Counted from the stretch's first letter, positions 2 to 38,888 are shown. The stretch is 40,000 nt of DNA from Gallaecimonas mangrovi (GCF_003367375.1 NZ_CP031416.1:3900674-3940673); one strand, 5' to 3'. Made by a program: numbers and translations. The notes: generated from the sequence alone by a model not told the origin.

Positions 2-481
2 TTTCGCCGCAACGGTTATATCAGCGCCTTTGGCGAAGGTTGGGCGCTGTATTGTGAATACCTGGGCGAAGAAGCCGGTTTCTACCAAACCCCCTACGAG
101 CATTTTGCCCGGCTGATTTTTGATGCCTGGCGCGCCGCCCGTTTAGTGGTCGATACCGGTATTCACTGGGACGGATGGAGCCGCGAGCGCGCTCAGCGCT
201 ACATGGCCGACAATACCGGCTTGTCGCTGCATAACGTGCAAACCGAAACCGACCGCTATATCACCTGGCCGGGCCAAGCCCTTTCCTACAAAATGGGTGA
301 ACTGACCATTCTCAGGTTGCGCCACAAGGCCGAAAAAGCCTTGGGTGATAAATTTGATATTCGCCGCTTCCACGACGCCGTATTGGCCAACGGCGCCGTG
401 CCACTGAAAGTCTTAGAGCAACAAATAGACCGCTTTATTTCCGAAGAAAAAGCCCGCACGGCGATGCCAGCGAAAGGATAA
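2..481 (+). CDS. DUF885 family protein, C-terminal part (5' end outside window)
   Basis: The open frame runs from the window edge to a stop at 481. It contains GEGWALYCEYLG and VDTGIHW...YITWPGQALSYKMGE, typical of DUF885. A hairpin terminator follows. Confidence 0.7.
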   Translation, partial: FRRNGYISAFGEGWALYCEYLGEEAGFYQTPYEHFARLIFDAWRAARLVVDTGIHWDGWSRERAQRYMADNTGLSLHNVQTETDRYITWPGQALSYKMGELTILRLRHKAEKALGDKFDIRRFHDAVLANGAVPLKVLEQQIDRFISEEKARTAMPAKG

Positions 482-5265: not shown

Positions 5266-5302
5266 TATAGCGAAAAAGCCAACAACAATGAAAGGGGGAG
5301 AG

Positions 5303-6178
5303 ATGCAACAATCTATGTTTAAGGGGCTGGTGTTTGCGTTGGCACTGGTTGCCTCGGCACCGGCCTTCTCGCAAAGCTGTGAAGTCATGTTACCGGTCAG
5401 CATCGAGCGCAACACGCCTTTTCTGGCCTTAACTATCGGCAAACAAACGGTTACGGCAGAACTTGATTTAGGGGCGAGAACAGCGCTGCATCTGCCAAGC
5501 ACGCTGATTAAAACCCTGCCGGGTGTGCATTACAGCAACAAAAGCCTTCGCAGCATGAACGCCGAAGGTAAAGTGCAGCAAAATAAACTTTTTACCCTCG
5601 ACAGCCTTTCCTTAGGCTGCCTGACCCTTACCCAGCTTAGCGGCGTTGAATTCCAGCCCTGGGAAGTGAACATGGGCGATGCATCCAAAGCGCCCAAACA
5701 GCCAAAAGCAGTAATAGGCCGTGACTTTTTTAAAGGCCAGATACTGCACCTTGATTTAGCCCACCAGCGCCTGACCATAACGCCAAGCAAGGCACCACTG
5801 GTGGGCTCGAGTCGTTACCAAAATACAGCCGAGGGCCTGACCATAGTGGCCACAAACCATGGCCACCCTTATCACTTGGTGCTAGATACCGGCGCCACCA
5901 ACTCGGTATTGGCAACAGCGAAAGTTGCCAAAGACGCGGTCATTGACCATTGCAGCTTTAATCTTGGCAACAACATTCCCTGCCAAACCTTGGCTGGGGG
6001 CCTTACTGTCCAGAGCCATACCTTTGCCTTGTCACCGCTGCTAATAATCCCCTTCGATCCGCGCTTTCAACAAGACGGCCTGCTGGGCTACGACTTTTTT
6101 AGCCAAGCGGTAGTCGATATCGATTTTGGCCACCAGCAATGGCGTTTGGCGGCCAAGGCCCAACCGAGCCGACAATAG
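5303..6178 (+). CDS. Secreted bilobed retropepsin-like aspartic protease family protein (paralog 1)
   Basis: A strong SD (GGGGGAG) precedes the ATG at 5303, and a signal peptide is present (ALALVASAPAFS). The second lobe has LVLDTGATNSVL and the first has ELDLGARTAL. IGRDFFKG and GLLGYDFF are flap/dimer-type motifs. Confidence 0.55.
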   Translation: MQQSMFKGLVFALALVASAPAFSQSCEVMLPVSIERNTPFLALTIGKQTVTAELDLGARTALHLPSTLIKTLPGVHYSNKSLRSMNAEGKVQQNKLFTLDSLSLGCLTLTQLSGVEFQPWEVNMGDASKAPKQPKAVIGRDFFKGQILHLDLAHQRLTITPSKAPLVGSSRYQNTAEGLTIVATNHGHPYHLVLDTGATNSVLATAKVAKDAVIDHCSFNLGNNIPCQTLAGGLTVQSHTFALSPLLIIPFDPRFQQDGLLGYDFFSQAVVDIDFGHQQWRLAAKAQPSRQ

Positions 6179-6418: not shown

Positions 6419-7291
6419 ATGGAAGCGTTATTGAGCCGCCCCCTTATAAAAATCGTTTTCAGCCTGTTCGTGGCGCTGCTGGCTGCCGGGCCTGCCAAAG
6501 CGGCATCAACCTGTGACCATGTCACGCTGCCTCTTAATTTCGACAGCTTAGGGTTACCGCATATTGACCTCGAAATTGCTGGTCACAGCCAGTCGGCGCT
6601 ACTGGACTTAGGGGTAGAGTCTGCCCTGTATTTGACCCGGGATATGGTTATCAAAAGCCACGCCCTAACCTACACCGGCGATGCGCAGCTCCAAGAAGAC
6701 TTAGCCGGGCACCAGCAAGTGCCTTGGCTGTTTACCATCAAGCATTTTCAGATTGAATGCATGAGCTTTAATCAGATAAGCGGTGCCGAATTGCTGCCTT
6801 GGGGCCTGACCATTGGCCAAGTAAAACTGCCGGACGAAAAAATCATCATCGGCCGTGACTTTTTTAAAGGTAAGGTGCTGGAAATAAGCTACCTGTTTTC
6901 CAGCCTGACTATCCGCCAGCCTAAAGCCGCCCCCGGCCCCGAATTTGAACCAATGAAAATGGACGCCAACGGCATTGCCGTCACGGCTAAAACCTTGTCA
7001 AAAACCTACCAATTGGTGCTGGACACCGGGGCAAGCTTTAGCTTTATCCGCCCCAAGAGCGTGCCTAAAGGCGAGCAAATTCGCCCCTGTCATTACCCCT
7101 TGGGCAAGGTGCAATGCCGGTTATTGGACAGGCCATTGCTGGTGGGCCACAAGGCGTTTTCGTCGCAATTTCTCATTTATCCAGTGTCACCAAGCTTTCA
7201 GCGCGACGGCATTTTAGGGGCCGATTTTTTCAAGCAATACGATGTGGATATCGACTTTAAACACCGTGCCATCAGACTAATTAAAACCTGA
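6419..7291 (+). CDS. Secreted bilobed retropepsin-like aspartic protease family protein (paralog 2)
   Basis: Signal peptide (LLAAGPAKA), LLDLGVESAL in the first lobe, LVLDTGASFSFI in the second, plus IIGRDFFKG and GILGADFF. It is collinear with paralog 1. Confidence 0.55.
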   Translation: MEALLSRPLIKIVFSLFVALLAAGPAKAASTCDHVTLPLNFDSLGLPHIDLEIAGHSQSALLDLGVESALYLTRDMVIKSHALTYTGDAQLQEDLAGHQQVPWLFTIKHFQIECMSFNQISGAELLPWGLTIGQVKLPDEKIIIGRDFFKGKVLEISYLFSSLTIRQPKAAPGPEFEPMKMDANGIAVTAKTLSKTYQLVLDTGASFSFIRPKSVPKGEQIRPCHYPLGKVQCRLLDRPLLVGHKAFSSQFLIYPVSPSFQRDGILGADFFKQYDVDIDFKHRAIRLIKT

Positions 7292-15400: not shown

Positions 15401-15961
15401 TTACAAGCTAAAGCAGTAGTTCAAGCGGTAGTCTTCACCATTTTTGGCGGTGTAGTCTTTGTCTTCGACGCAGGCTTCGGGCTTGTCGCCTTTCACCAGG
15501 CTTATCCAGTGGCGCATACCAGCGGTAGGGGTGTCTTGGTCAGCCATTTGCGTAAAAGTGGTGCAGGTTTCCAGCTGCACGTCGTCAATAAAGGCCAGCG
15601 CTACATTGCCCGAACCCTGGTGGCAACCGAATGCCACGTCTACATGGCCGCCGCTACCGTCGCGAAACAAAATAGAGCAGGGCGACTCTTTTTCCCCTTC
15701 ATAAGCCACGAACTGGCAAGGGTGCTTGAGGCCACTGTGGCTGCCATCTTTGAAGTAGGCCAGCAGGTGGTGATAGTCGATAACATAGCTGGTCACGTCT
15801 TGATGGGAACCGGCTTCAAGGGGGAACAAGTTATCTAAAAGCTGTTTGGCTTTGACCTGCTTTTCGCATTGCAGGCTGGCTTCCACCGCAAAAATGGCTT
15901 CGGCAATAAAGGGCTTTTGTTGTTCCTGGATCTCGGTTCTATCAAAAGTCAGCATGTTCAT
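15401..15961 (-). CDS. Hypothetical Cys/His-rich protein, divergent from the XRE/DUF2083 regulator
   Basis: The start at MNMLTF (15961) has a GAGGT SD. I recognise no family. Scattered Cys/His include HPCQF, FGCHQGSG, ETC, EAC and NYC. Confidence 0.5.
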   Translation of the reverse strand: MNMLTFDRTEIQEQQKPFIAEAIFAVEASLQCEKQVKAKQLLDNLFPLEAGSHQDVTSYVIDYHHLLAYFKDGSHSGLKHPCQFVAYEGEKESPCSILFRDGSGGHVDVAFGCHQGSGNVALAFIDDVQLETCTTFTQMADQDTPTAGMRHWISLVKGDKPEACVEDKDYTAKNGEDYRLNYCFSL

Positions 15962-16116
15962 GTTATCTACCTCGTTGGTGATTCGGTCTCTTGCCAGTGC
16001 ATGGTGTTTAACCTTAAGTGTGCTGCTGGTTAAGTGTTCACGGTGTTCGATAAGTAGACTAGCCAAAAGTTGACTATAATTTCACAACAAAAATTTTACA
16101 GTGTGAATTTTACAAA

Positions 16117-17640
16117 ATGGCAGTGTCAAAAAGCTTGGTCAGACAATCCCATTTTCTTGGCACCAAAGTCAGGAATTTGCGAAAACGTAACCACCTCACC
16201 ATGGAGGACTTGTCGTCCCGTTGCGTGCGCATCAACCCCGAAAACGCCCCGTCGGTGTCGTACCTGTCGATGATAGAAAGGGGCAAGCGGGTGCCCAGCG
16301 TCGAGATGCTGGAAGTGATTGCCGAGGTCTTTCAAAAAGACGTTAAATGGTTTTTGGACGACGAGCCGGAACAAGCGGAAATTACCCCCGACAAGGGTAA
16401 CCGCGGCGGCATTAGCGGCATGGCGCTGGAACCAGGCTTTTTGTTTTCAAACGAAATACTGCAAATTGCCATTCCAGAAATGCTGTCGCAAACCGGCATC
16501 ACCGGCCGCCAGTTTGCGCACCTATTGATACGTGCCCACCAGGAAAACCTGCAAAACCATTTTCCCAACCTGGAAAGGGCCGCCGAAGAAATCGGCCTAA
16601 AGCGCCTTAACCTGGCGGTGGAAGATTTGGTGGCTATCGCCAGCGACCTTGGCCTTAACATCAAGTGGGTAAAACGCACCCCAAAAGAGGTGGTAGACGA
16701 GCTTGGTATTAGCGCCAAACAGCTAGTGACCTCCTTTTTTGAACCGCCCGGCACCCTTTATTTAAACGAGATGCTGCGCCAATTTCCCACACGCCTGAAA
16801 TACGACCTTGCCGTCTACATTGGCCACAAGGTCTTGCATGGCACCGACGGCGTAAAAGGGGTGCTGACCATCGGCCACACCCAGCCCTGGGAAGAAGACA
16901 ACGCCGCCCCCACCGATGCCCTAAACGCCCAAGACATTTTGCAGGCCTGGCGCGATTTTGAATCGAGCTTTTTTGCCGGCGCGCTGCTCTGCCCCAAGGT
17001 GCCCTTTCGCCAACTGTTAGACAGCAACGGTTATGAAATTGCCGTACACAAAAAGGCCGGAGTGTCGCCGTCGGTGGCCATGCGGCGGATGACGGTGGTG
17101 TCGCCCTACCCGCACTGGCACTACTTCGACGCCTACGGCGAAGGCAAGCTCAAGGCGGTATATCGCGGTAACGGCATTCCGCTACCCTGGGGCAATATGC
17201 GCAAGGTCAAAGACCCTTGCCAGCACTGGGCGGTGTTTCGCCGCCTCTCGCAAGCACAGGCAGGCAACCCCAGCTCAGCGCAAATCTCCATTCTCAATGT
17301 CGGCGACAAGCCGCGTATTTATTGCTGCGAGTCGGTCAATATTCTCGACGCCGCCGGTAACGACCGGGTGCTTTGCGCCGGTATCGACCTTATTCCCGCC
17401 ATTACCGCCCAAGGCGTAGACGCCGACGCCATTGCCAGCGAACTCAAAGCCAGCTGCGTAAAAAGCGGCGGCGCCGCTGCCATCCCTAATGCCATTAAAA
17501 AGGAGCTGCGCACCATCGCCAAAATTCTCAATATCAACTGGATAGAGCGCGGCATCGAAAGCGACGCCCGGCTGATTTGCTCGCGGGGGGCGGTATGCCC
17601 CAGAAAGCCGAGTTGTTATGGGGGTTGCAGTGGCGAGTGA
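16117..17640 (+). CDS. XRE-family HTH regulator with ImmA/IrrE-like and DUF2083 regions (ScfR/RamB/PrpR-like)
   Basis: The N-terminal HTH is LGTKVRNLRKRNHLTMEDLS...VSYLSMIERGKRVPSVEMLEVIAEVF. The 507 aa length and Cys-rich C-terminal end fit the short-chain fatty acyl-CoA regulator family. Confidence 0.6.
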   Translation: MAVSKSLVRQSHFLGTKVRNLRKRNHLTMEDLSSRCVRINPENAPSVSYLSMIERGKRVPSVEMLEVIAEVFQKDVKWFLDDEPEQAEITPDKGNRGGISGMALEPGFLFSNEILQIAIPEMLSQTGITGRQFAHLLIRAHQENLQNHFPNLERAAEEIGLKRLNLAVEDLVAIASDLGLNIKWVKRTPKEVVDELGISAKQLVTSFFEPPGTLYLNEMLRQFPTRLKYDLAVYIGHKVLHGTDGVKGVLTIGHTQPWEEDNAAPTDALNAQDILQAWRDFESSFFAGALLCPKVPFRQLLDSNGYEIAVHKKAGVSPSVAMRRMTVVSPYPHWHYFDAYGEGKLKAVYRGNGIPLPWGNMRKVKDPCQHWAVFRRLSQAQAGNPSSAQISILNVGDKPRIYCCESVNILDAAGNDRVLCAGIDLIPAITAQGVDADAIASELKASCVKSGGAAAIPNAIKKELRTIAKILNINWIERGIESDARLICSRGAVCPRKPSCYGGCSGE

Positions 17641-17939
17641 GCTTTTACTCCCTGGCGGGATACCAGCACCTATTCCTATAACAGCCAAGTTAGGCATATC
17701 CACTTCTTTCACATTTTTAATGCTTAGCCGTTTACCCAGTGTTTTGATGTGGTTATGGTTGTTTAGGTTGGGTTTAACAAATGGATTTGGTGATAGGGAA
17801 GGCTGTCAGCTCAGGATGAGAAAGGGAGATTGGGAACCGCACCCAAGGGCGGTAGCGTCGATTGAGCCTTTTACTACCTAATCAATAACAAACTGATAAT
17901 TAATAGTTTTTCACTCTTACCCTGGTTTCACTGACGGCT

Positions 17940-18146
17940 CCTCTATACGCCGGGTCTCGCCCCGGCAGGCGAGGTACTTTGTTTTCGCACAAAGTACCCA
18001 AAGGCACCGCCCAGACGCTACGCGATGTCCTTACCTCTAGTCGCTTGCCGCTGACCGCTGCGTACGGTTCCCGACGCGTCCTCCGCTCGCTCGACATCCC
18101 TGTCTCGCGTCAGCTCACGCTCCCGACGGTAAGGCGCTCCACTTAA
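17940..18146 (-). repeat. E-family structured element, copy E1 (inverted relative to the other copies)
   Basis: The reverse complement aligns with E2/E3. It has the TTTAAGTGGAGCGCC start, the CCTTACC/GGTAAGG long-range stem, GACA-GGGA-TGTC, GAGCGGAGGA, the GGTACTTTGT/ACAAAGTACC hairpin, and a CCCGGC end. Confidence 0.7.
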
Positions 18147-18523
18147 ATGGGCTCCAAAAGCGGCGTTAGTAACACGTATGGGTGATAGAACTGTCTCAGC
18201 TGCCCCTACACTCCCATCAGCAAAGCGCTGCACTTAACGGGCAATAAGAGCGGTGACAGCAATGCCTTTGGTTGAAAAGACTGACCAAAGCTATTCCATC
18301 AAACCGCGAAGGGAAACAGATGATGTATCGCTTGTGCTATCAAATGACAACAAGCACTTATCTCGCTTTAAAACGATACCGCCCGATTTTATCACGCCAC
18401 AAACTGTGTTTTTGGCAAAAGTAATCATGAATATCATTTAGTTATTTCAATACCAACCAACTGGTCAAGTGAGCAAATGCGAGCACGATCGCTAATAAAA
18501 CTGTTATGCGCTATGGAGAATTC

Positions 18524-18771
18524 ATGAGTAATCTGGAGTTAGAGAAAAAATTCAGCAAACTATTATTAATGCTAGTCCTGGCCAGAAAATCGCACTGAAC
18601 TTCAGTGGTATTCCATTAATAATAGATATAAAAATGGAATTTAAAGGTGGCTGGGAAGTAACACAAACAATTATTCCCGGCAGAGCTTTTGAGTTCACCA
18701 AGGGCGAAGGAGACTTTTTAGTCAGCATTGACATAACGATGAATCCTTATGAAGGGCTTGCGAGCGCATAA
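18524..18771 (+). pseudogene. Small cassette ORF interrupted by a 1-nt frameshift in an A6 run (18545-18550)
   Basis: The ATG at 18524 reads MSNLELEKK and then leaves frame. The +1-shifted frame continues IQQTIINASPGQKIALNFSG...EGLASA to a TAA at 18769-18771, which lies inside the attC 5' box. Confidence 0.45.
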
Positions 18772-18865
18772 CAAACCAAGGCAGTGGGACGATTACATGC
18801 AGGCTCCCGTCACTTCGTTCCGTATTTTAGCCTGCATGTACTTGCCCCTGCTTGGGGCGTTAGGG
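18766..18865 (+). repeat. attC-like recombination site (classical type)
   Basis: The 5' box is GCATAAC and the 3' box GTTAGGG. The arms CCAAGGCAGTGGG / CCCCTGCTTGG pair, with an extra unpaired base in the 5' arm. There is a perfect 12-bp inner inverted repeat, TACATGCAGGCT (18794-18805) / AGCCTGCATGTA (18829-18840). Confidence 0.65.
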
Positions 18866-18904
18866 CTACCACATCGTTAAAATAACCAGCATAACGAATA
18901 AACC

Positions 18905-19891
18905 ATGAAGGTTAACTATTTCGGTTACTGTATAAGAAACCATGTAACAGGTCAGAAAATGCTATTTGACCTTAGAGATTTTTTGAAGGCATATTGCCGC
19001 CATGCCAGTACAGCATTTAAAAACAACTTTTTCCATAATGATGAGCATGTGTATCTTATTCATCATTTTGGAGATACTTTCCTTTTCTTAATTACAAGAA
19101 GCCATGAACTGATTAAGAAAGTGAATACTAATAATGTTTCCGTTGGTGAGATTAATTCGCTACTTGAACAAGATGAGCAACTTGGGTTCGCATCTTACTT
19201 ACATATAAAAGAGGATCATTTCGGGTTTGCATCTACATTGCTCGCGCCTAGAGTGGATGTTTTTACAACACACATAAATAACCTCCTTGAATCACTTGGA
19301 ATCCCTAATTTAAATTTCTTGCCACAAGCCTTGCTTTATCAAGCAACAAAAGAAGAAGCATTGTCGCTGCCACATATTGGGAGGACTACCATTGAACTGT
19401 CCAAGGAAAACTCATTTGTACAGGACATACTTGCGTCAATTTCCGCAAACACGACCGATACAATTGAACTTGATGGCATTGAGATCGTAATAAAGCCTAA
19501 GTCAAGAAAGAACATAAAGCCTACTGTTAGTAAGTTTCTATCATCTATCCCTGATGATGGCGTCGAGCGGATGATTATGAAAGCGAGAAATGAAGGTGCT
19601 TCTCAGATGACTGATTTATATCTGGTTGGTCGTGGAGCCATTTCAGATAGCGTGGATAAATCACAAGAAACTCGTATACCATCTCTATTAGAAGAGAAGA
19701 TGAATAGAAATAGATTTTTACAAGACAAGTTAACGGAGTACAGGGCTGATGAAGGTTTCGAGGAAAATTCTCTTGATGTTATTGTTCGGTTTACTGACGC
19801 TAGTGCCTGGGCCGATCTTTTATCTGATGTATTGCAAGATAGTAGCGATAGACCCGAGTTGGTCGATGAGCCTGATAGAACAGAAGAATAA
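18905..19891 (+). CDS. RexA-like abortive-infection protein
   Basis: The gene is AT-rich. By recollection it is collinear with lambda RexA. HVYLIHHFGDTFLFLITR matches NYLYIHKIDGKTFLFTKT, and EQDEQLGFASYLHI matches ADDESLGFPSFLFV. HIGRTTIEL matches FIGRTTVKV, and IEIVIKPKSRKNIK matches LDIVIKPKFKRDIK. Confidence 0.6.
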   Translation: MKVNYFGYCIRNHVTGQKMLFDLRDFLKAYCRHASTAFKNNFFHNDEHVYLIHHFGDTFLFLITRSHELIKKVNTNNVSVGEINSLLEQDEQLGFASYLHIKEDHFGFASTLLAPRVDVFTTHINNLLESLGIPNLNFLPQALLYQATKEEALSLPHIGRTTIELSKENSFVQDILASISANTTDTIELDGIEIVIKPKSRKNIKPTVSKFLSSIPDDGVERMIMKARNEGASQMTDLYLVGRGAISDSVDKSQETRIPSLLEEKMNRNRFLQDKLTEYRADEGFEENSLDVIVRFTDASAWADLLSDVLQDSSDRPELVDEPDRTEE

Positions 19892-20216
19892 TCTTGCTGT
19901 AATTGTAGCGACATTTGCATTTACTATGCTTGGATTTTTGGCAGCAGTGATAACAATCCTATTCTCTTTTTCTCGGTCTAGCACATTTAAAAAGTACAAG
20001 CGCAAAGGGCATTTAGATGTATTCTTCTTTGTCTACTATTTTGCGATAGTAAGCCTTGTTGTTACTTTTGTACTCGCTTTATTAACATTGGCTAGTGGTA
20101 ATGGATTATGGGCAATGCGAGGTGGACTGATGTCGACAGTCAATAATTTGGCTCAAATCACTTTACTGACTGTAATCATTGTAAATCTAAGCCGTAGGGC
20201 AATGAACGAGCCCTAA
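19749..20216 (+). CDS. RexB-like small membrane protein (4 TM from ATG 19749; 3 TM if ATG 19866)
   Basis: Its size and hydrophobicity pattern resemble lambda RexB, with a central basic loop (SRSSTFKKYKRKG vs GSRTRRLAKIRE). GGAG lies 10 nt before the ATG at 19749. The TAA stop is inside the CCCTAAC box of the next attC-like site. Confidence 0.55.
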   Translation: MKVSRKILLMLLFGLLTLVPGPIFYLMYCKIVAIDPSWSMSLIEQKNNLAVIVATFAFTMLGFLAAVITILFSFSRSSTFKKYKRKGHLDVFFFVYYFAIVSLVVTFVLALLTLASGNGLWAMRGGLMSTVNNLAQITLLTVIIVNLSRRAMNEP

Positions 20217-20354
20217 CAAGCGGCAGCAATCGGACTTACAAAACTGTCACTTGTTTTGCCAAAAAAGTGGCAAGAAAAACGTGGGACACCCACTTCTATA
20301 TCCCAATAAAATCAAATGGTAACGAAGCCACCTGCTTTTGGGGCCCCTTTAAGT
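20211..20354 (+). repeat. attC-like site, large conserved type (B-type), copy 1
   Basis: It starts with CCCTAACAAGCGGCAGCAATCGG. The conserved centre is ACCCACTTCTATATCCCAATAAAATCAAATGGTAACGAAGCCACC. It ends CTGCTTTTGGGGCCCCTTTAAGT. Confidence 0.5.
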
Positions 20355-20560
20355 GAAGCGCTGAGTGGAAAGGAACGTGAGTGGGCACGAGGCATGGACG
20401 CCGAGTGAGCGGAAGAAGGGCAGGATGCCCGTGTGCAGCGACCGCGGTAAGTGACTGGAAGCGAAGCAATAGCGTAACGCCGGGGTGTCGTTCTTTGCTT
20501 ACTTTCTTGGACAAGCAAGAAAGTAAGTCGCCCGCCGGGGCGAGTCCCGGCATTAACACA
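20349..20560 (+). repeat. E-family structured element, copy E2 (possible ncRNA)
   Basis: It begins at the TTAAGTG box and has GAGCGGAAGA and the GGGC-AGGAT-GCCC hairpin. A 12-bp hairpin CTTACTTTCTTG/CAAGAAAGTAAG follows. The GCCGGG/CCCGGC arms close the 3' domain. Confidence 0.7.
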
Positions 20561-20650
20561 CCAACCAGCGAATGAGGAAACTGAAGGTATAGCCATCTTT
20601 TTTATTAGTTTTCTCTAGAATTGACCTTTGTTTAAAAATGGTAAGACCCG

Positions 20651-21391
20651 ATGTTAAGACCAGAAATATTAAAAAGAGTAAAAGAAGAAATAGATCCATC
20701 ACTTTCTATTACGAAAAGAACAACTCCAGTTCCATACTTTGGGGATTATGATAATGCAAGAGCTTGTACTATCTCATTAAACCCAAGCGACCGAGAGTTT
20801 TGTGATAAAAATGGTGAAATTCTAATTCCAGAAAAAACAAGACTATGTTCAAGACAAGAACTTGAAAGAGAAGATTCTCAAGAGTTAACAGATTCAGAGG
20901 CAATAAAGGTAATCGATAATTGTAAAAATTATTTTAGAAAAAATCCTTATAAGTTATGGTTCAATAAATATGAAGAGTTCCTAAAGCAGTTTGAACTTTC
21001 ATACTATGATGGGTCGGCTGTACATCTTGATATTGTTCAATGGGCAACGACACCTTTTTGGAATAAGCTAAGTTCAGATACAAAAAGTATCCTTTTAAAA
21101 AAAGACCTACCTTTTTTAAAGCTGCTATTAGAAAAGAATTTTGATTTTATATTTCTAAATGGATTAACAGCTGTGACTGAAACAGCAAATGTTTTAGATA
21201 TCAGTCTGAATGCTATTCCATCAGAACTAATAGATGGTAAAGTCTCCCAAGTTTTTCTAGGGTGGTACAATAATTCTAGAGTAATAGGATGGTCTCCATA
21301 TATTCAGTCAGCATCAGTTGGCGGTTATAATAAAATAAGAAAAATTGCAGAAAAAATTATATCTGAAAATAGAAAAGACCTCATAAAATAA
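20651..21391 (+). CDS. Hypothetical cassette protein (very weak resemblance to UDG-superfamily motif order)
   Basis: An AT-rich 246-aa ORF followed immediately by an attC-like site. The order ACTISLNPSDRE ... IFLNG ... GWSPY loosely recalls UDG/MUG folds. This is speculative. Confidence 0.5.
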   Translation: MLRPEILKRVKEEIDPSLSITKRTTPVPYFGDYDNARACTISLNPSDREFCDKNGEILIPEKTRLCSRQELEREDSQELTDSEAIKVIDNCKNYFRKNPYKLWFNKYEEFLKQFELSYYDGSAVHLDIVQWATTPFWNKLSSDTKSILLKKDLPFLKLLLEKNFDFIFLNGLTAVTETANVLDISLNAIPSELIDGKVSQVFLGWYNNSRVIGWSPYIQSASVGGYNKIRKIAEKIISENRKDLIK

Positions 21392-21497
21392 TTTAGCGGA
21401 TCTTGAAATTTACTGGTTTTGCAAAACGTAGAATACCCACCTTTATATTCAAATAAAATCAAAAGTTAACGAAGCCACCAGCCTTCGCCCGTTAAGT
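21389..21497 (+). repeat. attC-like site, B-type, copy 2
   Basis: It starts at the stop codon (TAATTTAGCGG). The centre is ACCCACCTTTATATTCAAATAAAATCAAAAGTTAACGAAGCCACC. It ends with a canonical GTTAAGT (21491-21497). Confidence 0.5.
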
Positions 21498-21711
21498 GCA
21501 GCGCCTCGCGGGAAGGAGTGGGAGCTGACTTGAGGCAAGGATGCCGAAAGAGCGGAAGACGCGTCGGGAACGCGTGTGCAGCGGTCAGCGGTAAATGACT
21601 GGTAGCGAGGAAATCGCGGAACGTGGGTTGTGCTTTTGGTTGGGCAGCCCCGCTGACTTTTGGCGTAACAAAAGTAACCCGGCTGCCGGGCCGGAACCCG
21701 GCGTGTAACGG
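21492..21711 (+). repeat. E-family structured element, copy E3 (possible ncRNA)
   Basis: Paired helices are CCTCGC 21504-21509 with GCGAGG 21605-21610, GCTGAC 21523-21528 with GTCAGC 21584-21589, and GGCA-AGGA-TGCC. Further helices are ACGCG-TCGGGAA-CGCGT and ACTTTTG-GCGTAA-CAAAAGT. Confidence 0.7.
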
Positions 21712-21761
21712 AACCAGCAAGTATCATCAGGCAAGCAACTGACGCCCAATAACACAGACCA

Positions 21762-22553
21762 TCAACCCCAACCCTCCAAAACCTCCCCCAACACCTTCGC
21801 CAGCCCCTGTGGATTCTCCCACGCCATTGAATGCCCAGCGTCTTCCACCAAGGCGATATCAATGCCTTGAGCGGCCAGGATGTCAGTATCCGGGTCCGGC
21901 AGCGAATGCACACCAAACACAAAAGCTTTGGGGACCGGCAGCGCATAAAAGCGTTGCCGCCAGGATGGGCTGCCACCGGCGATAAGAGACACCGCCTCGC
22001 GATGCACTGCCTGGGGTAGACAAAGGCGCATACTGGCGGCCCACAGCTTGCCGCTGGGGTCGGCGCTGTCAACACTGCGGGCAATAACCTGCTGGTGACC
22101 GCAGTGAACGTAGTCTTGCTCGCTGATGGCGGCGATTTGTTTACTGAACATGCCGCCACCGGCATCGAGGTTGGCTTCACTCAAAACAAGGCCCGCCAGT
22201 TGCTCGGTAATAAGGCCCGTAAGCTCAATGGCCACAGAGCCGCCGCGGCTATGGCCGTACAGGTAGCAGCGACCCAGTTGCAAGCTTCGGATAAAGTCGG
22301 CCAGATACTGTGCGTGGGCGCTGATGCTGTAAGCAAACGCCTCGGGCTTGTCGCTAAAACCCGCCCCTAACAAATCCACCAGAATGCAGCGGTGGCCTTT
22401 GTGCGCCAAGCGGGTAGCCACTTCGGGGTAATCAAAGGAAGAGGCGCAGCCGATACCGTGAATAAAGACGATAGGCGTATTATCGCCGGGCAAGTCGTGA
22501 TAGCGCACATAAGCGCCTGCTGACGATACGAAAAATCCTTTCACCCTTACCAC
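21762..22553 (-). CDS. Alpha/beta-fold hydrolase
   Basis: It has IVFIHGIGCASS (oxyanion region), the nucleophile elbow YGHSRGG, and a C-terminal DAGH catalytic-His region. The start is GTG. The gene is antisense to the attC polarity. Confidence 0.75.
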   Translation of the reverse strand: MVRVKGFFVSSAGAYVRYHDLPGDNTPIVFIHGIGCASSFDYPEVATRLAHKGHRCILVDLLGAGFSDKPEAFAYSISAHAQYLADFIRSLQLGRCYLYGHSRGGSVAIELTGLITEQLAGLVLSEANLDAGGGMFSKQIAAISEQDYVHCGHQQVIARSVDSADPSGKLWAASMRLCLPQAVHREAVSLIAGGSPSWRQRFYALPVPKAFVFGVHSLPDPDTDILAAQGIDIALVEDAGHSMAWENPQGLAKVLGEVLEGWG

Positions 22554-22591
22554 CCCGTTTGTAGTCCACGTTTTTGCGGCGGTGATATTAC

Positions 22592-22690
22592 CTGAACAAA
22601 GTCAGATCTCTAACGAAGCTAGCTGCTTTTGGGCCCCAATAGCGTAACGCCCGGCGGATAGAGAAACCGAGTGGCATCACACCAATAAAA
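22592..22690 (+). repeat. Degenerate junction: internally deleted attC-like site fused to a deleted E element (mini copy E4)
   Basis: CTGAACAAAGTCAG...TCTAACGAAGCTAGCTGCTTTTGGGCCCC runs directly into AATAGCGTAACGCC and then CCCGGCGGATAGAG. The TTAAGT box and both E domains are missing. Confidence 0.55.
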
Positions 22691-22732
22691 AAAGCAATTC
22701 TTCCCTTTATAACCAAACTAAAAAAGCCGACC

Positions 22733-23479
22733 TCACCCCGGCTGCGCCACCAATACTCCCTCAACGGCAAGCACATCTTGCAAGTGTTTAATAAGCAGCC
22801 CTGAGTAGGTTGCGTCATCATAATGATGGTCGCAGGGATCTTTGTTCAAAAGATAAGGGGCAACCAGACCATCTGGCCCTAAAGACTCGTTGTCTAACCA
22901 AAGGTAGTGGTGTCCCTGCTGTTGGCAGTAGCTTGCCATTTGTTTGTTAAAGGCCAGAGTCAGTGCGGTTCTTTGCTGTTGGGTGGCATTGATGTCGTTG
23001 CGGATATTCGCAATTTCGCCCCAGTCGTTATCATCCCTGATAGTTGGCATTGGCGTAGAGATACAGATAACCGGCGCTAAGGCGGCCACCTCGGCAATAA
23101 AGGCCTGATAGTTATTGACGGCTTTTTCCAGCATCTCAGCGACTGGAGCCTGGTATTTCTCGGCCCGATACCAAATGACAAACCCGGTATCGACCTCACC
23201 GAGCAGCAGCACAATATAGGCTGGGCGAGCCGACTTTAACGCCTTGCGGAATTTATCCAGCGCCTTGGTCTTGGAGTTCGGGTTTTCCAGGCCAGAAATG
23301 GTTGCGCCGCCCACGGCGCAGGTTGAAACAAAAAAGCCTGGGAACGCTTTTTTTAGAAGCTCTTTTTTAAAGACACTGGCATGAGAGTCCCCCAACACCA
23401 ACACCTCTTGCAAATAAAAACGCTTAAAATACTTCAGTACGCGCTGAATACTTTTTCGCTTTAGAAATTTTACTGCCAT
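22733..23479 (-). CDS. SGNH/GDSL-like hydrolase-type protein (tentative)
   Basis: VLVLGDSHASVF resembles SGNH block I, and a DHH lies near the C-terminus. The start is taken at MAVKF (23479). The gene is antisense to the attC polarity. Confidence 0.4.
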   Translation of the reverse strand: MAVKFLKRKSIQRVLKYFKRFYLQEVLVLGDSHASVFKKELLKKAFPGFFVSTCAVGGATISGLENPNSKTKALDKFRKALKSARPAYIVLLLGEVDTGFVIWYRAEKYQAPVAEMLEKAVNNYQAFIAEVAALAPVICISTPMPTIRDDNDWGEIANIRNDINATQQQRTALTLAFNKQMASYCQQQGHHYLWLDNESLGPDGLVAPYLLNKDPCDHHYDDATYSGLLIKHLQDVLAVEGVLVAQPG

Positions 23480-23616
23480 TGCACCGCTTCTTTTCGAACA
23501 GCTGCCCATTTTTAGCTCGCCGCAGCCAACATTAACTTTCACTAAAATAATGAGGCGGCCATAGAAAAAGCCGTCTTTAGCGGTCTGTATTTTTTCGTGA
23601 AAACATGACCTTGTTT

Positions 23617-23767
23617 GTTAAACAATCGTGCAGCAAATCACCCGCACAGTCGCAAGGCCATTAGCGTGCTGATGGCACTATTAGCAAATAGACGTGGGGC
23701 ACCCACTTCTACATCCCAATAGAATCAAAAGTTAACAAAGCCACCTGCTTTTGGGGCCCCTTTAAGT
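23617..23767 (+). repeat. attC-like site, B-type, copy 3
   Basis: The 5' arm GTTAAACAATCGTGCAGCAAATC parallels CCCTAACAAGCGGCAGCAATCGG of copy 1. The centre and 3' end are nearly identical to copy 1 and end in TTTAAGT (23761-23767). Confidence 0.5.
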
Positions 23768-24141
23768 GAAGCGCCTTACTGGCGGGAGTGGGAGCTGATG
23801 CGAGTCAGGGATGAGAGGCGGCCAGCTTGGTCAAACTGAACACGCGTCGGGGCGAAGCTTGCGCATCAAAGTGCTGCTTTGATGCTGCTGAGCGCGAGCA
23901 CAGGACGTGGCGAGCCGGAATGCTAGCAACACGGGATTCAATCAGGACACCGCGACAAATTTGCCAGGAGCAAATTTGAATATCGGCGCTTGCGACGATT
24001 ACCCGTTAGGGCGAAGACCGTGGATGGTCTGAGTAAACGTGGGCAGTGCTTTTGGTTGGGCAGCCCCACTAACTTTTGACGTAATGTATACAACGTAACA
24101 AAAGTAACCCGGCTGCCGGGCCGGGACCCGGCATTAAAAAC
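23762..24141 (+). repeat. E-family structured element, copy E5 (expanded first domain)
   Basis: It has the same start and the same 3' domain as E3. About 0.2 kb of extra hairpins sit in the first domain, for example CATCAAAG-TGCTG-CTTTGATG and CAAATTTG-CCAGGAG-CAAATTTG. Confidence 0.65.
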
Positions 24142-24202
24142 CCGGCGGATAAAGGGATCACCCGTTTCAACAAACCCCAAAATCCACTAAACCCAACCCA
24201 CA

Positions 24203-24230
24203 AAAAAGCCGCCCTAGGGCGGCTTTTTTT
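24203..24230. terminator. Hairpin terminator at the right array/core boundary
   Basis: AAAAAAGCCGCCCTAGGGCGGCTTTTTTT lies just downstream of the minus-strand peptidase gene. Confidence 0.8.
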
Positions 24231-24247
24231 ATTCGCTAACTACACCG

Positions 24248-26134
24248 TTACTCAGGCAACACATTAAAGGTCACCGAGCTCGGATACTGCTCAGAGTGGT
24301 ACACCTTGTGGGTCGCACGTTCAAAGTCGGCTTTTTTGGCCTCAAAAATATTCGGTACATATTTTTGCGGGTTCAAATCGAGGAACGGGAACATGGTGCT
24401 TTGAATTTCTATTTCCAGTTTGTGGCCACGTTTAATGTTGTGGAACACGTCGTAGAGGTCGAATTTCACTTCAGTAGGCTTATTGGGCACAAAGGGCTCA
24501 GGCTTGGAGAAGCTATTGCGGAAACGGCCGCGAATAACGCCCCAGCGCACCAGTTCATGGCGATTGCCGGTGTCATCATCTTTAAGGCCGGTGTTCTCGT
24601 CGGTGCCGGGGAACACATCCACCAGCTTAACGATAATGTCGGCGGCGGTGTGGTCGGTCGAGAACCACAAGTTGACCTTAAGGCGGCCAGCAATGGTCAT
24701 GTCGTGCTTGGCAACCGGGGTATCAAATACCAGCACGTCGGGGCGACGGGCGGCAAAGCGCTGGTCAGCGGCCATGTACTCACGGGCCCAGCCACGGGTA
24801 ATGCTGGTGGACTGCGGTACCGGTTTATTGGGGTCAGAAACGTAGTCGCTAAAGCCGCCTTTAGGGTCTTTGTGGTCCAGCAGCTTTTCACCGCCGCCTA
24901 AATACAGGGTTTTAGACTCGGTGTGCTTGGGCGGCCAGCTGTCAAAGGTACGCCAGCGGTTAGCACCGGTTTCAAAAACAATGGCTTTGGCCAGTTCAGG
25001 CTCTTTTTTCCCTTTCAGATAATGCTCGAAGAACGGCAGTTGCACGTGGTCTTGGTACCACTTGGTGGTGTCAAAACCGAACTGGGCGGTGCCCATGTGC
25101 GAGCCGTCGGCGCGGTTCCATTGGCCGTGGAACCAGGGGCCCATTACTAGGCGAACGTTACTTTTCTTGTTGCCATGGGACATGGTGGCGTAGGTAGACA
25201 GCGCGCCGTACAGGTCTTCGGTGTCGTACCAGCCGCCCACCACCAGGGTTTCAGGCTTGGTGTTTTTCAGGTGCGGCAACACATTACGGGCCTGCCAGTA
25301 GGCGTCGTAGTTGGGGTGCTCGGTAATTTCGTCCCAGAACGGGCGCTTATGGTGGAAGTATTCCTTGTTGGCGTTGCTCAAGGGGCCCAATTCTTTAAAG
25401 AACTGGTAGCCGTCTGGGGTGTAGAGCTTGTGCCCTTCCGGCCAAACGCTAATGGGGCCCTTGCGGGGCTTGTCAAAGGTGTCGAGGAACAAAAACGCCA
25501 TGGGGGTAACGAAGGTGCCGCGGCGGTGGAAGTCGTCTCGGAACCAGTTGGCGATGGGCGCCTGCGGGGAAATGGCTTTTAGCGCCGGGTGGGCGTGAAT
25601 AGACGACACCGAGGTGTAATAACCCGGGTAAGAAATGCCCCACTGGCCCACTTTGCCGTTGTTATCGGGAATGTGTTTTACCAGCCAGTCGATGGTGTCA
25701 TAGGCGTCGGTGGCATCATCGGTGGCCTTGCCACCTTTTTCGGCTGCGTCTTGCGGGCGCATGTTGACGAACTTGCCTTCAGACATAAAGCGGCCGCGAA
25801 TGTCCTGGAATACAAAGATATAACCGGCTTTTTCAAAGCTTTCGCTTGGCCCTAAGCGGGTTTTGTATTTGTCGGCTCCGTACGGCGCAACCTGGTAAGG
25901 GGTGCGCTGCATCAAAATGGGGTATTTCTTGGAGCGATCGTAGGGAATGTAAACCGAGGTAAAGAGCTTAACACCGTCGCGCATCGGGATTTGGTATTCA
26001 AACTTGGCATAGTGGCTACGAATGTAGTCAGCCCGCTCTTTATCGGCCTTGGCAGGCTCGGCGGCAAAGGCCGTGCTGACCAACAGCAGCGCCGCCAATG
26101 CTGCCGCGAAGCCGCGCATCATTATGGTTTTCAT
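24248..26134 (-). CDS. CocE/NonD family hydrolase (S15 Xaa-Pro dipeptidyl-peptidase type), secreted
   Basis: 628 aa with a signal peptide (LLVSTAFAAEP) and the nucleophile segment WGISYPGYY. A large C-terminal beta-sandwich region is typical of the family. Confidence 0.8.
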   Translation of the reverse strand: MKTIMMRGFAAALAALLLVSTAFAAEPAKADKERADYIRSHYAKFEYQIPMRDGVKLFTSVYIPYDRSKKYPILMQRTPYQVAPYGADKYKTRLGPSESFEKAGYIFVFQDIRGRFMSEGKFVNMRPQDAAEKGGKATDDATDAYDTIDWLVKHIPDNNGKVGQWGISYPGYYTSVSSIHAHPALKAISPQAPIANWFRDDFHRRGTFVTPMAFLFLDTFDKPRKGPISVWPEGHKLYTPDGYQFFKELGPLSNANKEYFHHKRPFWDEITEHPNYDAYWQARNVLPHLKNTKPETLVVGGWYDTEDLYGALSTYATMSHGNKKSNVRLVMGPWFHGQWNRADGSHMGTAQFGFDTTKWYQDHVQLPFFEHYLKGKKEPELAKAIVFETGANRWRTFDSWPPKHTESKTLYLGGGEKLLDHKDPKGGFSDYVSDPNKPVPQSTSITRGWAREYMAADQRFAARRPDVLVFDTPVAKHDMTIAGRLKVNLWFSTDHTAADIIVKLVDVFPGTDENTGLKDDDTGNRHELVRWGVIRGRFRNSFSKPEPFVPNKPTEVKFDLYDVFHNIKRGHKLEIEIQSTMFPFLDLNPQKYVPNIFEAKKADFERATHKVYHSEQYPSSVTFNVLPE

Positions 26135-37943: not shown

Positions 37944-37970
37944 AAAACCGGCCTAAGGCCGGTTTTTTTT
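37944..37970. terminator. Bidirectional hairpin terminator
   Basis: AAAACCGGCCTAAGGCCGGTTTTTTTT. The stop of the minus-strand gene lies in its loop. Confidence 0.75.
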
Positions 37971-38888
37971 AGTGCTGCTTTCGGTGGGCACCGCCACATT
38001 CATGCGGCCATTTTTATAGTCGATGGTCAGTACAAAATGCTTAATAACATCAAAACCTAACAGCCCCCTGACCCGAGCATTATCAATGCGGGTAAGGGCG
38101 GAGCCATCGTTAAGACTGTCGGTGGCGTCATAGCGGCCGTCGGTCGGTACCGTCACAGCCACATTCTCAACCTGGTAGGGCCCGAAAGTCAGTACCGGTA
38201 GCCGAAAGGTGTCATTAAGCACTTTGTTGTTAACCCCTTGCGCTACCACCTGCTGGCTGGCAAAGGTTTTTAGCCAGCCTTGCGCTTGCACTAAAGAGTG
38301 CGACAACAATAAGCCGCCGCTATTGCCGGTATCCAGCACCAGCCACACCGACTTTTGATCATTGAGTTTGGTTTTGACAATAGGAAAGCCACCGGCGGCA
38401 GTACGCATCTCTATATTGCTGTACCGATTCATATCCAATGAATCTCGTGTGATAAGGCGCATACGCTGGTTGGGGTAATCAATTTGAAAGATAAATTTGT
38501 CGAAAAAGCCCGCACCCAATAACAGCCCCAGGTTTTTATCTCCTAAAGCGACAGAAACGAGATGATCCATCTGCCAATGCGCGCCCATTAACTCAACACC
38601 AACATCGTTAAAGCTCTGTTGGCGCTTAGTGCCAAAGGCGCCTTTGACTAAAACCGCAGAGCCTTTGGAAAGCTGCATATGGTTCGCTTTGATAAAAGCC
38701 GTATTAATGCCGTTGATCATGGCTCCGGAATCTAAAACCACGTTGGTTTTGATGCCGTTAACCGTTACCGGCAAGGTAATGTGGCCGTTATAAAGCGTGA
38801 AGGAAAACCAAGGGGTAACCGCAGCGGAGGCAAAAGCCGAAAAAAGGAGGAAACACAAGGCAGTAAAGCGTAACCATAGCACCATCAT
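37953..38888 (-). CDS. Secreted bilobed retropepsin-like aspartic protease family protein (paralog 3, both lobes with D[ST]G)
   Basis: It has a signal peptide (LLFSAFASAAV). The motifs VVLDSGAMINGI and LVLDTGNSGGLL are present, along with LLLGAGFFDKF and GLLGFDVIKHF. Confidence 0.55.
   Translation of the reverse strand: MMVLWLRFTALCFLLFSAFASAAVTPWFSFTLYNGHITLPVTVNGIKTNVVLDSGAMINGINTAFIKANHMQLSKGSAVLVKGAFGTKRQQSFNDVGVELMGAHWQMDHLVSVALGDKNLGLLLGAGFFDKFIFQIDYPNQRMRLITRDSLDMNRYSNIEMRTAAGGFPIVKTKLNDQKSVWLVLDTGNSGGLLLSHSLVQAQGWLKTFASQQVVAQGVNNKVLNDTFRLPVLTFGPYQVENVAVTVPTDGRYDATDSLNDGSALTRIDNARVRGLLGFDVIKHFVLTIDYKNGRMNVAVPTESSTKKNRP

Follow-up and report, generated by a model that had tools for sequence, protein, structure and literature searches.

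The locus described here raises the question of whether the repeats that separate the genes of an array without an integrase are the recombination sites of an integron or something else. We examined a window of 40,000 nucleotides from Gallaecimonas mangrovi (NZ_CP031416.1:3900674-3940673) and, within it, the interval delimited by the gene of an XRE-HTH/M78/DUF3612 regulator (16117-17640) and a CocE/S15 peptidase gene (24248-26134, minus strand), both identified with Pfam; the peptidase shows 100% identity to its G. mangrovi counterpart. A preliminary description had read this interval as a cluster of attC sites lacking an integrase (CALIN), made up of one textbook attC-like palindrome and three larger sites. 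With about even confidence, we propose that it is an integron-derived island with one attC, and that its other repeats belong to a separate element, which we call E, likely a non-autonomous, structure-dependent repeat of presumed mobility.

The palindrome at 18766-18865 (+) is a genuine attC. Its R'' box, GCATAAC (18766-18772), encloses the TAA (18769-18771) that ends the open reading frame (ORF) 18634-18771, its R' box, GTTAGGG, occupies 18859-18865, and the next ATG (18905) follows 40 nt past R'; both the stop inside the 5' box and the start shortly after the site had been described. The boxes pair through TAAC/GTTA, followed by a 2x2 internal loop and a long stem that contains a perfect 12-bp inverted repeat (18794-18805/18829-18840); inspection by eye showed the 5' arm to have an extra base. 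Both strands form a hairpin from end to end, with −21.8 kcal/mol (z = −3.3) for the bottom strand, whose folding had been proposed as a check, and −23.8 kcal/mol (z = −4.0) for the top strand, and none of 200 shuffled sequences was as stable. The site significantly resembles the attC sites located between co-oriented small ORFs of Gallaecimonas sp. GXIMD1310 (z = 7.0 and 5.0, with 0/500 shuffles in both cases, and z = 3.3). We then derived a family profile exclusively from attC sites of other genomes, five in all: four belong to GXIMD1310 arrays, and the fifth lies beside integron-integrase fragments in a metagenome scaffold (L012). In the 40 kb, this profile gave a single significant match, 18765-18865 (+), with an E-value of 0.0015, the next best being 5.6. 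The region therefore combines a palindrome with pairing R'' and R' boxes and membership in a family of array sites, and the boxes, the inner repeat, the fold, and the profile bear out the attC initially described. Other approaches to detect attC were discarded: our own scan for R''/R' boxes with a hairpin was unspecific and matched coding DNA many times, profiles of the half-sites at attC ends lacked power, and a match to the signature TAACAAR...GNGTTA at 994-1097 (−), which runs over the beginning of a TonB-receptor gene, was judged to be due to chance.

The larger sites (20211-20354, 21389-21497, and 23617-23767) had also been taken for attC, and this was not sustained by the profile, similarity, or folding tests. 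The family profile, run over the 40 kb, matched none of the three; their similarity to the validated family was not significant (z = 1.7, −0.4, and 1.7), the stretch shared with it being limited to GCC(A)CCTGC(TT)TTGGGGC; and their minimum-free-energy folds leave the ends unpaired (z = −1.6, −0.8, and −0.9, respectively), although such z-scores are poor discriminators and weak evidence here, because accepted attC sites of the relative also fold badly. In site A (20211-20354) the complementarity between R'' and R', counted by eye, is 4/7. The outline of these sites was correctly observed, since they end in TTTAAGT (20348-20354), GTTAAGT (21491-21497), and TTTAAGT (23761-23767) and have a common central part; however, the conservation of the sequence does not stop at (G/T)TTAAGT but continues for another 200-380 nt. 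It is also correct that two of them start on or at the preceding stop codon, as CCCTAAC (20211-20217) encloses the stop of rexB and the stop of the ORF 20651-21391 (21389-21391) opens the second site. The three larger sites are the 5' flanks of a longer structured repeat, E, and not attC hairpins. A short imperfect palindrome, CCCTAACAAGCGGCAG...CTGTCACTTGTTTTGCC, was read from the sequence at 20211-20259 (+); it does not fold significantly (z = −0.25 and −0.67) and is possibly an attC remnant.

Profile and covariance searches revealed six copies of E in the window, four long and two partial; all of them fall inside the island, the remainder of the 40 kb having none. E starts with an invariant (G/T)TTAAGTGNAGCGC box, located 5-10 nt past a small hairpin that ends in GCTTT; the small hairpins preceding the box give significant folding z-scores of −2.75 and −2.9. 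A full element is about 230-300 nt long and consists of a multi-helix core of 146 nt, a covarying hairpin (H1), and a probable 3' pseudoknot. Across the upstream flank and the box, the copies of the window are 61-93% identical. Copy D is inverted and lies at the left edge of the island (17945-18153, −; nhmmer E-value 1e-78; 161.9 bits with the covariance model R1 described below), with its box, TTAAGTGGAGCGC, at 18146-18134, its core at 18008-18152, H1 at 17974-17997, and the pseudoknot at approximately 17945-17975. Next to it there is a fragment of a second inverted copy (18205-18237, −), recognized by nhmmer (9e-06) and by a box match, which comprises the box GTTAAGTGCAGCGC and about 20 nt. 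Copy A (20279-20556, +; 1.6e-84; 150.4 bits) has its upstream flank at 20279-20348, the box at 20349, the core at 20343-20487, H1 at 20498-20527, and the pseudoknot at 20528-20551; in copy B (21426-21708, +; 8.8e-88; 163.5 bits) the box is at 21492, the core at 21486-21631, H1 at 21657-21675, and the pseudoknot at 21676-21702. The doubly deleted copy E' (22574-22676, +; 1e-4; repeats D4 and D11) retains the upstream flank, the strands of the outer helix, and the 3' tail. Copy C (23692-24137, +; 4.6e-75; 26.7 bits), also defined by alignment with a Gallaecimonas pentaromativorans locus (L005), has its box at 23762, an extra domain of about 200 nt that replaces the inner helices, and the pseudoknot at 24106-24132. 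This extra domain (23814-24035) contains a hairpin of its own, GCATCAAAG...CTTTGATGC, and is about 82% identical in G. pentaromativorans (L005 12222-12291). On the strand opposite to the 3' ends of E, a GC-rich hairpin precedes a T-rich run at 17954-17975 (+), 20543-20528 (−), 21692-21676 (−), and 24125-24108 (−); these terminator-like sites face transcription arriving from outside the island.

The covariance model R1 was derived from the 146-nt core of only the window copies A, B, and D, and it finds five full copies in GXIMD1310 with 79-98 bits; that is, the structure derived from three copies of the window holds in five copies of a second species. In the R1 alignment, 91.7% of the cells are paired, as compared with 74.5% in shuffled alignments (0/500 reach the observed value) and 24-44% when the 3' partners are slid, figures that are somewhat inflated because the alignment was fitted to the model. 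Changes on both sides were found in 22 of the 41 core pairs. The stem of the hairpin located 3' of the core differs wholly in sequence between classes and retains its complementarity. Farther downstream, two interleaved helices are both retained in four sequence classes (90.9% paired, 0/500 shuffles) and probably form an H-type pseudoknot. The outer helix and the 3' domain are still present in the short forms of E. With these compensatory changes, E is a folded single strand, either a structured RNA or single-stranded DNA (ssDNA). The E pairs include 20 G-U as against 9 A-C, which favors the box-carrying strand as the one that folds.

No match was obtained in Rfam 15 for the whole window at gathering thresholds, and lenient Rfam searches with single copies of E returned only TwoAYGGAY (19.2 bits, gathering score 43) and noise. 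E had no match in plasmids (BLAST) or in viral contigs and metagenomes (pattern scans); among 185,579 species genomes it was found in one other Gallaecimonas, GXIMD1310, in addition to one chance match. Judging from these searches, E is an undescribed family, restricted to the genus as found. Several identities were considered and rejected. A group II intron does not fit, since the 5' end is GUGNA and not GUGYG, domain V is missing, and Rfam gives no match; a retron would lack its reverse transcriptase; and a small protein gene is at odds with the conservation of base pairing but not of the internal ORFs. The upstream flank of E showed only a weak, unconserved match to a sigma-70 promoter, and convergent inverted pairs of E cannot be read as one giant attC, since the order of the boxes is wrong (GTT...AAC).

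The RNA-like junction of several helices and the pseudoknot, both with covariation, together with the G-U bias on the box strand, could instead indicate that E is a functional non-coding RNA and neither a mobile element nor a recombination site; it might be of the Csr/Rsm type, or a 3'-untranslated or boundary element that stabilizes the upstream cassette mRNA and stops incoming transcription. One hairpin of E (P7) reads ACA-RGGA-UGU, and the loop of a second (P9) is CGGGA or CAGGA; these are presumably comparable to CsrA-binding sites. Examples of such E hairpins lie at 18095-18108 (−), 21531-21544 (+), and L003 972-1093 (−) of GXIMD1310. As in the Csr/Rsm RNAs and TwoAYGGAY (RF01731), two hairpins thus carry GGA in their loops, but E has two or three GGA sites and a large additional structure, and its TwoAYGGAY score is far under the gathering value. 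The conservation of copy C in two species with a same-strand terminator downstream, and the resemblance of the antisense of the E 3' ends to outward-facing terminators, would also agree with an RNA function. Against it, for most copies neither a conserved promoter nor a terminator of their own was found, and diverged copies and deletion derivatives crowded in one island, in both orientations, are unusual for a small RNA gene. We regard this explanation as rather unlikely.

The context of full copies of E outside the window comes from approximately 24 kb of one other genome, that of GXIMD1310. In this genome, E copies bracket AT-rich cassette arrays between core genes at at least three chromosomal places, and two of these loci (L003 and L004) contain co-oriented cassette arrays with attC sites. 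One class of E is inverted at the upstream end of the arrays, and another class stands directly after the last cassette. The layout of the window matches this arrangement, with D inverted at the left, and A, B, E', and C in direct orientation behind modules. The window, L003, and L004 all have islands that are bracketed by inverted copies. In the single copy examined at a further GXIMD1310 locus (L002), the stop codon of the cassette is about 5 nt before the small hairpin and the box 5-10 nt past it, so that E occupies the place expected for an attC. We also observed that convergent pairs formed by the two classes where arrays adjoin, including a spacer of about 45 nt, are kept as a unit (L003 646-1113; L004 548-1026 and 4007-4327; L002 6990-7312), and that two of the four GXIMD1310 pairs carry extra inserts in the spacer.

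A comparison of the interval among relatives had been suggested, and it showed that the gene content differs. In G. pentaromativorans, the genes past CocE are different, yet a diverged copy C with its extra domain is located at the same place. In the metagenome scaffold L012, whose CocE is 83% identical, CocE is directly followed by ArsP and DUF885, E is absent, and the homology with the window stops at 24197. The DUF885 gene (L012 13307-13747; window 2-442) is 1.4 kb away from CocE in this scaffold and 23.7 kb away from it in the window, so most of the region 500-24200 is absent or rearranged in L012. About 8-9.5 kb from its CocE, L012 carries two integron-integrase fragments with identical N-termini (19529-19780, −, and 21064-21381, −; TIGR02249, 2.5e-21), a TraB/GumN-family cassette (19980-20951, +), and an attC (20985-21052), and the contig ends just past them. 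From the contexts in L012, G. pentaromativorans, and GXIMD1310, it follows that the clade has chromosomal integrons and that the neighbourhood is variable.

The position of E relative to the cassettes led us to weigh whether all four sites described initially could be functional attC of an unusually long, genus-specific type, in which case the interval would be a true CALIN and the body of E would be just a conserved 5' leader of some cassettes, starting at G|TT. Every copy of E begins exactly at (G/T)TTAAGT, which is similar to an R' box, sites A and B each have a stop codon at their 5' end, that of rexB and that of the ORF 20651-21391, respectively, and sites A and C start with TAAC-AAGCG-GCAGCAA and end with CCTGCTTTTGGGGC, resembling the halves of the validated attC; moreover, the accepted sites in the relative also fold poorly. 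There is also a precedent, the DUF1874 motif, in which a multi-stem structure is repeated in consecutive intergenic regions between ORFs, a series that does not end in an integrase, and which has been discussed as a possible complex ssDNA attC (PMC5737381). Like this motif, E recurs as a multi-stem structure between successive ORFs without an integrase; unlike it, E has no Rfam match at the gathering score, is larger, includes a probable pseudoknot, and is also found inverted at the ends of arrays. Nevertheless, the failure of the profile, the insignificant similarity, and the unpaired ends speak against this possibility, as does the TTTAAGT found in copies A, C, and D, a box that lacks the G of G|TT. 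In addition, inverted copies and a copy C without a downstream gene are unlike a cassette leader, and most cassettes of the GXIMD1310 arrays lack E. We consider this possibility doubtful. To a similarly limited degree we entertain that E might be a new structured element replacing attC, either a complex ssDNA recombination site or landing pad used by a recombinase of the integron type or another, or a guide-type RNA belonging to a mobile element that homes to the G|TT of attC hairpins; this would amount to a cassette system of a variant kind, present at several places in the chromosome and expressed from an RfaH/ops leader instead of Pc.

Concerning the integrase, the absence of a tyrosine recombinase-like ORF in the window, as previously noted, was confirmed. 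A Pfam scan of all window ORFs of 250-450 amino acids (aa) detected no tyrosine recombinase, and a six-frame tblastn search of the 40 kb with IntI1, XerD, VchIntIA, and the N-terminus of the IntI of a relative, three of these four queries being sequences entered by hand, gave a best E-value of 0.27. Integrase remnants were found neither in the window nor in loci L002-L005. Within the window there is, then, no intI adjoining an attI and cassettes, as a complete integron would have, and an integrase encoded elsewhere in the genome could still act on the lone attC. No intI lies nearby, as befits a CALIN; the definition of a CALIN also requires at least two attC sites (PMC4889954), and we count one validated site and three candidates that fail the available tests. 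With a single provable attC, the interval would fall short of the definition.

Directly after the attC we found a rexA homologue, encoding an abortive-infection sensor (18905-19891, +; Pfam RexA, 7e-67; PADLOC RexA, 5.5e-66), and an adjacent rexB homologue for the membrane component (19749-20216, +; PADLOC RexB, 2e-24; Pfam RexB, 2e-4), which overlaps rexA and whose start is uncertain. Together these genes are predicted from their sequence to constitute an AT-rich, promoterless anti-phage abortive-infection module. The following ORF (20651-21391, +), of 246 aa, belongs to a rare family with a patchy distribution (51 homologues) and has no match in Pfam, NCBIfam, or PADLOC; in metagenome contigs (L010 and L011) some of its homologues have a PhD/PIN toxin-antitoxin pair, DUF5677, and DNA methyltransferases beside them, and because of these neighbours it is a candidate defence-associated gene. 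Two genes lie in the opposite direction to rexAB, one for an alpha/beta-hydrolase (21762-22553, −; Pfam Abhydrolase_1, 2e-17; GC about 0.59) and another for a GDSL-like hydrolase (22733-23542, −; Pfam Lipase_GDSL_2, 2.9e-05, under the curated cutoff). The GC content of these reversed genes, 0.58-0.60 and about 0.49, is inside or near the range of the flanks (0.50-0.60). In turn, GC is 0.33-0.47 over 18501-21500, in agreement with the AT-richness originally noted for the ORFs at 18905-21391. Between the inverted copies of E and the attC there is another AT-rich stretch (18253-18771, +) that contains only short ORFs (62 and 45 aa) without a Pfam or PADLOC match and is possibly a decayed cassette terminating in the attC.

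At the left edge of the island, a JUMPstart/ops-like element formed by a hairpin and GGGCGGTAGCGT (17830-17858, +) points into it. Its score with RF01707 is 22.6 bits (local E-value 0.008), below the gathering score of 35, and it carries GGCGGTAGCGTC in comparison with GGCGGTAGCGTG in the family. At the equivalent position of GXIMD1310 (L004 4368-4405, −), between the core gene and the cassette array, a full RF01707 match (49 bits) is aimed at the array. The element of the window is probably an RfaH ops leader directed into the island, which suggests that the AT-rich modules may be expressed by RfaH-dependent read-through.

The island shares with CALIN and sedentary chromosomal integron arrays (PMC4889954) the lack of an adjacent integrase, promoterless AT-rich modules, an attC whose R'' holds the stop codon and whose R' is soon followed by an ATG, a content that differs among relatives, and an attC family specific to the genus; defence genes have likewise been reported as cargo of integron cassettes (bioRxiv 10.1101/2024.07.02.601719). 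It differs from them in having one validated attC instead of at least two, boundaries mostly filled by a multi-helix element of 230-300 nt, two reversed modules of host-like GC, and an ops-type leader in place of Pc/attI. Some of these features would also fit an island unrelated to integrons, that is, an ordinary hotspot for defence or accessory genes that carries REP-like repeats and in which the attC is a stray relic: a single attC was validated, the authors of IntegronFinder regard lone attC sites as possible false positives (PMC4889954), the hydrolase genes are reversed and similar to the host in GC, and homologues of the 246-aa ORF occur in non-integron neighbourhoods of the defence type. 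We find this improbable in view of the homology of the attC with sites of real GXIMD1310 arrays bracketed by E, the classic cassette geometry, with the stop inside R'' and the ATG 40 nt past R', and the intI remnants near CocE in L012. The data support the idea that the interval is a lineage-variable, integrase-less, integron-derived island of cassette-like modules. The initial view of an attC cluster without an integrase thus stands as regards the missing integrase, the variability, the cassette-like modules, and one attC, but not as regards the number of sites, since only one passes and a CALIN needs at least two.

The flanks had been described as core genes with their own terminators. On the right, the island and the CocE gene end at a common bidirectional intrinsic terminator (24201-24228; AAAAAAGCCGCCCTAGGGCGGCTTTTTTT). 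On the left, a terminator 3' of the XRE-DUF3612 gene was looked for and not found, and the nearest homologues of this regulator are from Vibrio (86%), with no other Gallaecimonas among the best 120. The description is therefore not borne out for the left gene. Next to it, a 221-aa ORF (15401-16066) matches solely the insertion domain of malate synthase G and may be a gene fragment. The DNA of the left flank may itself have been acquired, to judge by sequence. Elsewhere in the window, 500 bp of AT-rich intergenic DNA (540-1046; GC 0.35) upstream of a TonB-dependent receptor gene carry no copy of E and no convincing attC, and three paralogues of about 300 aa each (5288-6178, 6419-7291, and 37953-38888) have tandem retropepsin-like aspartyl-protease domains.

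Taken as an explanation of the island, integron activity in Gallaecimonas would have left a variable, integrase-less island with one attC, RexAB, and further one-gene modules. E, as a non-autonomous, structure-dependent repeat, would have spread to positions 3' of the hairpins at cassette boundaries, and its copies would now punctuate the island, providing stretches of homology at which DNA may be rearranged, as well as terminator-like hairpins that face outward. This spread would be comparable to the homing of IS1111-attC insertion sequences and group IIC-attC introns to attC sites. In common with these elements, E has a precise, oriented place beside a boundary hairpin, a structured nucleic acid, and copies confined to arrays; it differs in having no transposase or reverse transcriptase ORF, a length of about 230-300 nt, no Rfam group II match, and no recognized subterminal inverted repeats. 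E also resembles REP/BIME/REPIN sequences and IS200/IS605-derived PATE with omega-RNA, which are non-coding and intergenic with a strand-specific fold, lack terminal inverted repeats and a clear target duplication, and have a fixed 5' junction motif, deletion derivatives, convergent inverted pairs (as those of GXIMD1310), and a structured 3' end with a pseudoknot. Unlike REP, E is much longer and more complex, and the arms of its inverted pairs are about 65% alike and each folds on itself; furthermore, the DNA inspected showed no gene for RAYT, TnpA, TnpB, or IscB.

Several points weigh against the proposal of an integron-derived island in which E is a distinct mobile repeat. A transposase, a target-site duplication, and an empty site for E were looked for in the available loci and none was found, so that its mobility is no more than inferred; the reconstructed empty site GCCCGTTAAAGGGGCC was searched without success, and the idea of a TTAA target duplication, which fits only copies A and C, was rejected. 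The presence of copy C at the same site in two species would also agree with a host function. In copies A and C, the two ends of the upstream flank, TAAC-AAGCG and CCTGCTTTTGGGGC, bear a weak likeness to attC halves, so these sites may be degenerate or atypical attC. Finally, the attC profile was built on just five sequences, the fitting of the covariation alignment to the model structure biases the pair counts upward, and the DNA inspected comprises the window and the mentioned 24 kb or so of the sole other genome with full copies.

Integrase-less cassette clusters are common, and their origin, expression, and rearrangement are poorly understood. In this island, a validated attC and a defence module share an array bounded by a conserved multi-helix element, and the same element brackets arrays in a second species. 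The locus is also a case of misleading attC-like end motifs, which makes it worthwhile to check the output of attC finders against longer repeats. If E acts in recombination or mobility, it would represent a second kind of boundary element of cassette arrays; if it is an RNA, it would be an undescribed family tied to mobile gene pools.

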